Assembly: GCF_902713615.1 (NCBI RefSeq)
Contig: NC_052162.1
Span: 112,495,811-112,559,810, forward strand
From: Scyliorhinus canicula
Lineage: Eukaryota
Reading direction: 5' to 3'
DNA: 64,000 nucleotides
Numbering within the stretch: position 1 is the stretch's first letter; every line of letters starts with the position of its first letter. The notes below the pieces were generated by a model that did no database searches, had not been told where the DNA came from, and worked only from the letters and a program-made list of their open reading frames with translations. Of this stretch, positions 5,549 through 7,062 are shown piece by piece. A program made the translations under genes and the position numbers.

Positions 5549-5955
5549 TGAAGGACATTTATTTTATCCTGGATAGCAAATTTGTTTTTCCTACTGCTGA
5601 GTAGGAAACATGGCTCACATTGTGCTATAAGGCACTGATCTTCAAAGTTGGGGACGCAACCCGCAGGTGGGTCATGGGCGTGTGTCAGGAGGGTCGCGGA
5701 GCCGTCCGTCGCTCCCGATTGTGCAAATTAGCGCGCAACAACTGCAGCAGCCGGCTTTTAACCATGCCGGCTGTGAGCAGCCTTTTTACAATATAAAAAA
5801 ATGTGGCCGCACTGCACGTGCGTGCCCGCTCATCGGTGCGCATGCGCAGAATTTTGCACATGCACACACCGATGATCAGGCATGCATGCGCAGTGCGCCG
5901 CATTTTTTTTATGGTAAAAGGCCGCTCGCAGCCGGCATAGTTAAAAGCCAGCTGC

Positions 5956-6449
5956 TGCTCGCTCTGCCCGGTTCGGAAGTGCTCGCTTCTTCTGAATGGA
6001 GCTAAGGTCGAGTTTCCCCCCCTGGCGACTAGCACCATCGGACCCACCCGCAGAGATCCAGCGCTATAGCCTCCACCTCGGAACTCGCCTGTATCTACAG
6101 TGCGCTCATCCTTCACGACGACGAGATCACTATCACCGAAGACAAATTCAATGTCCTGATTAAAACAGCTGGTGTGACCATTGAGCCTTTCTGGCCTAGT
6201 CTGTTTGCTAAGACATTGGCTAATATTGACGTCAATAGTCTGAACTGCAACGTTGGTGCTGGTAGCGGTGCCCCAGCTGCAGCAGCAGTTCTTTCCACAG
6301 CTGCCCATGTTGCTACTGAAGAGAAAAAGGAAGAGAAGAAACAGGAAGAATCTGAAGAGTCTGATGATGACATGGGCTTGGTCTCTTTGATTAAATGTGC
6401 CGTGCAACAATATTGTTACAATTTATAAAAAATAATTATCTATTGAATA
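5956..6449 (+). pseudogene. RPLP1: Processed pseudogene of 60S acidic ribosomal protein P1 (CDS remnant 6066-6394)
   Basis: Intronless translation (I)[48 protein letters not shown]...[23 protein letters not shown] mutated to ATA at 6066; 1-nt deletion in the terminal MGFGLFD*; flanked by direct repeat TAAAAGCCAGCTGC (5942-5955 / 6450-6463). Confidence 0.95.
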
Positions 6450-6605
6450 TAAAAGCCAGCTGCAGACTGTGAATTTGTGCATTCGGAGGTGCAGATTATT
6501 TTTTTAAAATTCTATGGTCACGGCCCCCAAACGTCACCATCACGCACTTTATGCGCGATTTTGATTCCTCCATTTTGTCAGCAGCAAACAAGGTAAGAGA
6601 AAATG

Positions 6606-6743
6606 GTGGGCCACGAAGGTCAGCCAGTGTGAGTCGCGAAGGTCGGCCGGCGTGGGTCCCGAAGGTCAGCTGGCGTGGGTCCCAAAGGTCGGCCTGCGTG
6701 GGTCCCGAAGGTCGGCTGGCGTGGGTCCCGAACATTGGCCAGT
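6606..6743 (+). repeat. 23-bp tandem repeat x6 (GTGGGTCCCGAAGGTCGGCTGGC), hAT subterminal array
   Basis: Units start at 6606, 6629, 6652, 6675, 6698 and 6721. Confidence 0.9.
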
Positions 6744-7062
6744 TGGTAAAAATGGTTCCCCAGAAAAAAAGTTTGAAAACACTGCTGTAAGGCATACTGG
6801 TAAAAGAGGACAATGACAGAGGCCAACAAATTTTTGTGCGTGTGGACACTGTAGCTTAAGCAGAACGACTTTCATGGGAACAGACAGAACAACGACTTAC
6901 AACTGGACATTTTACTAATAACACAGTTTTGGAACAGCGAGATCAAGGCTCTCTCAAGGATGAAGGATGTCTATAAACTGCAAGCTAAACATAAAATAGC
7001 AGAGACTTCGGCGATAACTCCAGAATCAACCTTCGCAAGATCAGACCTGAGTTTGGAACCTC

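Follow-up and report, generated by a model that had tools for sequence, protein, structure and literature searches.

The 64,000-nucleotide stretch of Scyliorhinus canicula DNA analysed here (hereafter the window) contains a hAT DNA transposon that carries a near-full-length copy of a spliced RPLP1 mRNA. We conclude with high confidence that this copy was likely inserted once by a LINE into the hAT element, was then likely spread by hAT transposition to about 200 unlinked sites, and has been decaying there. In the mechanism that we propose, LINE-mediated target-primed reverse transcription would have placed a copy of the RPLP1 mRNA in a non-autonomous hAT element of Buster type, where it occupies a single fixed position. 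Priming would have paired the poly(A) tail of the mRNA with the run of T already present in the target, so that no extra poly(A) tail would have been left. A hAT transposase acting in trans would then have carried the composite to its present sites, where the cargo would decay as a pseudogene, and gene conversion between neighbouring copies would have followed later.

Structure of the Element in the Window

The hAT element occupies positions 5633-6784 of the window and has imperfect terminal inverted repeats (TIRs), CACTGATCTTCAAA... and ...TTTGAAAACACTG; its features are listed in Table 1. In most copies, the TIRs are likewise imperfect, about 16 bp long, start with CAG and end with CTG. The RPLP1 copy was inserted in the right arm of the internal palindrome of the element, and two other cargos found in sister subfamilies, HPRT1 and a third one, start near the palindrome centre. 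The RPLP1 frame in the window insert matches PF00428 with 69.3 bits (cut-off 28.1). The subterminal repeats are likely to be putative transposase-binding repeats.

Other features lie close to the element. A C2H2 zinc-finger fragment (PF00096; window 5331-5525, plus strand) ends about 110 bp before the hAT element, which may sit in the 3' UTR of this fragment. The 3' part of a LINE is found at 4300-5335 on the minus strand; it gave no Pfam hit, and it contains a cysteine-histidine knuckle that we take to resemble that of L1. A decayed LTR retrotransposon extends over about 7080-10900 on the plus strand, with protease-, RT-, and integrase-like frames recognised by eye.

Table 1. Features of the hAT element and its RPLP1 cargo (positions in the window)
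Feature	Position	Strand	Remarks
Left 8-bp target-site duplication, CTATAAGG	5625..5632	+	TA at positions 4-5
Left terminal inverted repeat, imperfect	5633..5648	+	Base 3 C>G compared with most copies
Long internal palindrome	5744..5958	.	Arms 5744-5799/5903-5958 and 5793-5838/5867-5912
Inner duplication, left copy, 17 bp, TT/AAAA site	5942..5958	+	Single-copy in empty elements
RPLP1 processed copy	5958..6451	+	From mRNA base 6 to poly(A) site; four exons joined; no extra poly(A) tail
Broken RPLP1 coding region	6066..6394	+	ATG>ATA at 6066; one base missing near 6378; original stop 6392-6394
Inner duplication, right copy, 14 bp	6450..6463	+	Shortened by a later deletion in the window copy
Subterminal 23-bp tandem repeats	6606..6732	+	Number varies among copies
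Right terminal inverted repeat	6769..6784	+	16 bp
Right 8-bp target-site duplication, CTGTAAGG	6785..6792	+	7/8 positions like left copy

Origin of the RPLP1 Cargo

An exon-intron pattern gave one match for the RPLP1 parent gene, which has four exons and is located at G000:C10:25.868-25.875 Mb. The parent exons are 96-100% identical to the insert consensus, with 11 substitutions, one indel, and one amino-acid difference, and the parent introns of about 3.4, 3.2, and 0.27 kb are missing from the insert. Together with the PF00428 match, this bears out the sequence-only reading, an earlier interpretation of this DNA, which had described an intronless RPLP1 copy with a 5' UTR. In the RNA run X21, 2,791 reads carried a template-switch adapter and five parent bases before the base at 5958, and 511 reads continued as poly(A) after 6454. 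The first base of the insert thus lies 5 nt downstream of the cap site, and its end coincides with the poly(A) site. The 5' and 3' inner junctions are identical among copies, and the inner duplication is 17 bp long at a TT/AAAA site across 23 complete composites. The same earlier reading had reported a 14-bp direct repeat at this site; such a repeat is indeed present in the window (5942-5955 and 6450-6463), and the original duplication was 17 bp, the right copy having been shortened. The insert has the characters of a processed pseudogene, namely absence of introns, transcript ends, and a flanking duplication that is single-copy at the empty site. The retro insertion into the hAT element likely happened once.

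TT/AAAA is the L1 target consensus. The RPLP1 insert lies at such a target; however, no A is found beyond the target's own AAAA, and because an L1-mediated retrocopy usually has a poly(A) tail, the insert is regarded as L1-like only and is not filed as an L1 product. Four stand-alone RPLP1 retrocopies were observed in the genome (L104, L106, L117, and L128). Among these, L104 and L117 have clear duplications of their own at sites other than TT/AAAA, L104 without a tail and L117 with about eight A, which leaves the L1 label with a single supporting site. The L1-type insertion that had been proposed is thus inferred from the TT/AAAA site and the duplication, and is weakened by the missing tail and by the sites of L104 and L117. 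LINE-type insertion was likely the first step, and the one TT/AAAA site would point to the L1 clade. It had also been held that retrocopies are much rarer outside mammals. They are not very rare in cartilaginous fishes, since the available text of a recent preprint gives them as 5.4% of annotated loci there versus 21.6% in mammals (bioRxiv 10.64898/2026.06.26.734816).

A different first step can be envisaged, in which a break in the palindrome was repaired with RPLP1 cDNA or mRNA as template, by gap filling or template switch, and was followed by the same amplification at the DNA level. The absence of a poly(A) tail, the TAAAA common to the mRNA end and the target, and the location of the insertion in a long palindrome agree with such repair. 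So does the HPRT1 cargo, which lacks its 3' end, passes directly into a transposase remnant, and starts at the palindrome centre like the third cargo. Gap filling is also the origin proposed for animal Pack-TIRs in the available text of Tan et al. (2021; PMC8277862). Target-primed insertion, however, fits the 17-bp duplication at the TT/AAAA site as well as both transcript ends (cap and poly(A) site), and the HPRT1 cargo may once have been a complete retrocopy that was shortened by a later deletion. The stand-alone copies L104, with its duplication and no tail, and L117, with its eight or so A, indicate that tail-less retrocopies arise here outside any palindrome. We therefore consider break repair improbable and prefer LINE-type insertion as the first step.

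Copy Number and Probable Transposition of the Composite

When the insert and its two junctions were used as a DNA query, 783 first-look candidates were obtained, 40 of which were scored. All 40, distributed on 16 contigs, covered most of the insert and the flanking element, and they were 85-89% alike, the window itself excepted. A 23-base pattern of the composite 3' junction, with at most 2 mismatches, had 168 matches in the genome and the control had 0. This pattern recovers 27/35 and 20/22 known composites, which gives a copy number of about 185-220 for the RPLP1 composite. Among 40 RPLP1 matches picked by eye down the match list, 36 were composites and 4 were stand-alone copies, and RPLP1 sequence was present in 29 of the 30 loci retrieved with the right arm alone. 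Empty elements were also found (L069, L072, L091, and L100), with the same ends and a single-copy target site. L121 and L040 were considered as stand-alone retrocopies and rejected, both being damaged composites; L121 (898-1300) has four tandem copies of a piece of about 101 bp around the RPLP1 start.

The target duplications were studied in 55 unique loci, which remained from 70 loci after 14 duplicates and one empty element were removed. Both element ends were kept in 35 of these loci, and one recognisable end was missing in 20. An 8-bp target duplication with at least 6/8 positions alike flanked 29 of the 35 complete copies, compared with 4.8% for cross-paired flanks; a clear duplication was absent in the other 6. 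Among the 29 copies, 28 distinct duplications were observed. The target consensus is TA-centred, with T at position 4 in 52/58 and A at position 5 in 51/58 duplication copies. The consensus nnnTAnnn with an 8-bp duplication characterises the Buster type in the available text of PMC3517528, and it is the consensus of the RPLP1 composite family. Since a separate 8-bp duplication flanks each copy, outside the inner junctions that the copies share, the second step is attributed to hAT transposition. The family also combines what defines a multicopy Pack-TIR, that is, host sequence between TIRs, several copies, and distinct duplications. These results suggest that the composite was likely copied by hAT transposase to about 200 scattered sites. 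The junction search and the count of hAT elements with and without the insert, which the sequence-only reading had named as its check, thus revealed many composites, separate duplications, and empty elements, the hAT element with its 8-bp duplication was confirmed, and the mobilisation of the composite by hAT transposase, one of two alternatives in that reading, was supported.

The copies might also be explained by segmental duplication of a single nested insertion, or by many independent retro insertions at the same site. Segmental duplication does occur in the family, as five HPRT1-type copies at C1:188-190 Mb have common flanks and a common target duplication, and L018 and L151 resemble each other in their left duplications and over 96 bp of flank. 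However, the duplications of the RPLP1 composites are almost all distinct, and flank matches between copies are short and 70-87% alike, as would be expected from host repeats. Independent insertions are opposed by the identical inner junctions and by the stand-alone retrocopies, which start and end in other contexts. Among the copies examined, we found no flanks common to most copies, no parent flank or intron sequence, no differing inner junctions, and no dN/dS well below 1. Both explanations were rejected for the bulk of the RPLP1 copies examined and are extremely unlikely. The one-off nested insertion that had been offered as an alternative fails as well, as the composite is neither confined to a single locus nor accompanied by shared flanks.

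The hAT transposase was found as remnants only in relatives with the same ends. In one of them (L073), a remnant matches PF05699 with 28.6 bits (cut-off 21.4), and by its features, with a very high score, the transposase remnant is FAM200/GTF2IRD2/SCAND3-like, which is taken as a lead. A full-length autonomous partner was not found among the 30 of 150 scored hAT loci that were checked, nor by one pattern search, and homologue searches with transposase pieces gave no matches, which is weak evidence. The transposase that moved the composite would have acted in trans.

Cargos of the Sister Subfamilies

In a sister hAT subfamily, whose elements are about 1.4 kb long and have the same termini, the cargo is a piece of HPRT1; its start is at the palindrome centre, and its reading frame continues into a transposase remnant (members L073, L076, L080, L081, L084, L087, and L193-L204). 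The piece matches solved HPRT structures (E 9e-54). The HPRT1 composite junction had 209 matches in the genome and 0 in the control, and the pattern recovers 13 of the 14 top matches. In the parent gene (G000:C17:152.5-169.6 kb), exons 2, 3, and 4 are located at 169.6, 160.1, and 152.5 kb; in the element they are joined without the 9.4- and 7.4-kb introns of the parent. No exon 1 was detected within G000:C17:110-350 kb. The cargo is truncated at its 3' end and directly joined to the transposase remnant, and it may have arisen either as a complete retrocopy that a deletion shortened or by template switch. Most HPRT1-type copies with both ends have 8-bp duplications. The five copies on C1 (L230-L234, G000:C1:188.16-189.90 Mb) are a local segmental duplication.

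Two further elements, L085 (G000:C3:92.07 Mb) and L098 (C4:84.72 Mb), share a third interior of about 0.6 kb that starts from the palindrome centre and looks like non-coding host DNA. In addition, at L094 a different small TIR element, flanked by an 8-bp duplication, has inserted close to the palindrome centre of a relative. The same route was thus used with two different mRNAs in one hAT family. It is conceivable, though doubtful, that this family is a recurrent trap of host mRNAs, with the palindrome drawing in RNA-derived insertions or repair templates, that each capture was amplified about 200-fold, and that the copies record a near-universal conversion of 0.5-kb homologues one to three megabases apart.

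Age, Decay, and Expression of the Cargo

The inserts differ from their consensus by 5.5%, and by 4.2% outside CpG (47 copies). A tree of 81 rows was star-like, with 4 of 78 inner branches starred. The star-like tree and this divergence suggest one burst of amplification. In two other organisms, B and C, the 5' junction was spanned by one contig each. A further contig of organism C passes from the right end of the element into the window's own flank, and this single contig is the record of the window insertion elsewhere. Among the 120 best homologues, P1-like clusters numbered 25 in S. canicula and 12 in S. torazame. The burst is likely older than the splits from organisms B and C and from S. 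torazame. The closest named proteins to the window insert are Scyliorhinus P1-like entries, and the dozens of catshark 'RPLP1-like' protein entries are likely transposon passengers and not a selected expansion. Extra P1-like entries were also seen in Carcharodon, Cetorhinus, and Hemiscyllium (P0021, P0048, P0105, P0100, P0028, and P0031). Another RPLP1 homologue, P0014, is shark-like and comes from a contig of 430 bp, and its record names it as a ribosomal protein of Aeromonas veronii; it likely represents host contamination of the A. veronii record.

The copies could in principle be a family of RPLP1 retrogenes kept by selection as a source of additional or variant stalk protein. The founder frame, as given by the insert consensus, was intact, an open frame is kept in 18 of 73 full-span copies, and the P1-like clusters of the two Scyliorhinus species are numerous. 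However, the ratio of observed to expected amino-acid-changing mutations was 1.08 for 75 inserts and 1.06-1.23 in three differently chosen samples, and family-wide selection on the cargo was rejected on this ground. In the bin that borders the insert on its left, RNA depth was about 50 versus 3,000-13,900 inside in X21, and 1.3 versus up to 1,295 inside in X22; at the junctions, it was about 1% of that of the insert or less in the two runs. The RNA reads within the insert carry parent alleles, and 1 of 3,244 X22 reads was 99% like the window copy. The TATA-like promoter of the parent was not captured in the insert. Judged family-wide, neither purifying selection nor own transcription was found, and a selected family is therefore highly improbable. 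The RPLP1 copies decay neutrally as a family, within which single functional copies may exist. The proposal that the element was spreading a ribosomal stalk gene consequently overstates function, as the copies decay and the window copy lacks its ATG.

Probable Sequence Exchange Between Neighbouring Copies

Copies that lie near each other share more mutations than distant ones. Among the first 80 inserts, all five pairs within 3 Mb had 4-14 common derived non-CpG changes, compared with a mean of 0.46 for 2,999 different-contig pairs. The sample was extended by 20 further copies fetched by position, with 6 near pairs skipped for short overlap. Of the 20 pairs lying at most 3.5 Mb apart, 16 then had at least 4 shared changes per 400 sites, as did 9 of the 12 pairs that were new; the figure for comparison was 44 of 5,448. 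Sharing amounted to 1.93 per 100 sites in the insert versus about 0.4 in the arms. The left-TIR subtype differs in four near pairs, and the target duplications are different in most of them. The composite L014 lies 1.6 Mb from the stand-alone copy L104; their inserts are 97% alike, and their flanks do not match. Neighbour pairs with shared derived mutations include L014/L104, L067/L127, L140/L146, and the window copy/L121; three near pairs had no shared changes. Shared and private changes are interleaved in both partners, which argues against a polishing artefact.

These results indicate that neighbouring copies likely exchange sequence by gene conversion over megabase ranges. For the composite pairs, local hopping followed by conversion of the arms may be an alternative. 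Six pairs within 3.5 Mb were counted among 62 exact matches, with 3.5-3.8 expected (p 0.14-0.18), so that local hopping and conversion are not separated by clustering. The C1 cluster of HPRT1 copies was rejected as a case of gene conversion, because its shared flanks and target duplication mark segmental duplication. The two remaining near HPRT1 pairs had 3.3 and 4.1 shared changes per 400 sites versus 1.0, which is weak support. The roughly 200 neutral 0.5-kb copies of the same age offer a test set for ectopic conversion in relation to distance and for neutral rates in sharks.

Comparison With Known Systems

The likely exchange among the shark copies is similar to non-allelic conversion among Alu elements, in which, in the available text of PMC8230782, neighbours also share derived changes and the sharing declines with distance. 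The range is different, being about 10 kb for Alu (PMC8230782) and up to about 3 Mb in the shark family of about 200 copies. No report of megabase-range conversion among transposon copies was found in the literature searched.

In its ends, the element resembles Buster/Charlie-type hAT MITEs such as Mar, which, as far as described in the text at hand, have the nnnTAnnn target, short TIRs, and an origin as deletion derivatives of a transposase-bearing element (PMC3517528). The shark family differs from these MITEs in its long internal palindrome and in its cargo, which comes from host mRNA. It also resembles animal Pack-TIRs, which are mostly hAT, in having host sequence between TIRs and distinct duplications, as in the three copies of Pack-hAT-N8_XT (PMC8277862). 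Of the 370 animal Pack-TIRs in the available text of Tan et al. (2021), 4 families were multicopy, and it states that intronless copies of multi-exon genes were discarded; its main text mentions an ARF6 retrogene in MER20, not as multicopy, and does not contain the word 'shark' (PMC8277862). The RPLP1 composite is Pack-TIR-like after its capture; the capture itself differs from the DNA-level capture of Tan et al., and because the cargo is a spliced mRNA, the composite is not a Pack-TIR in their sense.

The closest parallel is provided by bat Helitrons. According to the available text of Thomas et al. (2014), four mRNAs were retroposed into Helitrons (HelibatN424 and three others) and amplified to 118 copies, six of them of RPLP0, and the authors call this the first case for any DNA transposon (PMC4224331). 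The two-step retro-then-DNA route put forward in the sequence-only reading is therefore supported here and is not new. For this element, or for any multicopy TIR element that bears a retrocopy, we found no report in the open literature searched. Our results document the amplification of a retrocopy by a cut-and-paste transposon, a route previously described from Helitrons and filtered out of the Pack-TIR survey. They also imply that counts of retrocopies of a single gene may inflate the number of retrotransposition events about 200-fold. As far as the text of Thomas et al. describes them, the two systems have in common a retroposed mRNA in a DNA transposon, a duplication of its own, relatives with the empty site, propagation, and a stalk-gene cargo. 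The bat Helitrons are rolling-circle elements of a mammal with poly(A) tails, whereas the RPLP1 element is a cut-and-paste hAT of a shark without a tail, and the bat total over four cases stands against about 200 copies of RPLP1 alone and the HPRT1 junction matches in the shark. Thus, retro insertion into a cut-and-paste element with about 200-fold amplification is a well-supported variant of a known route.
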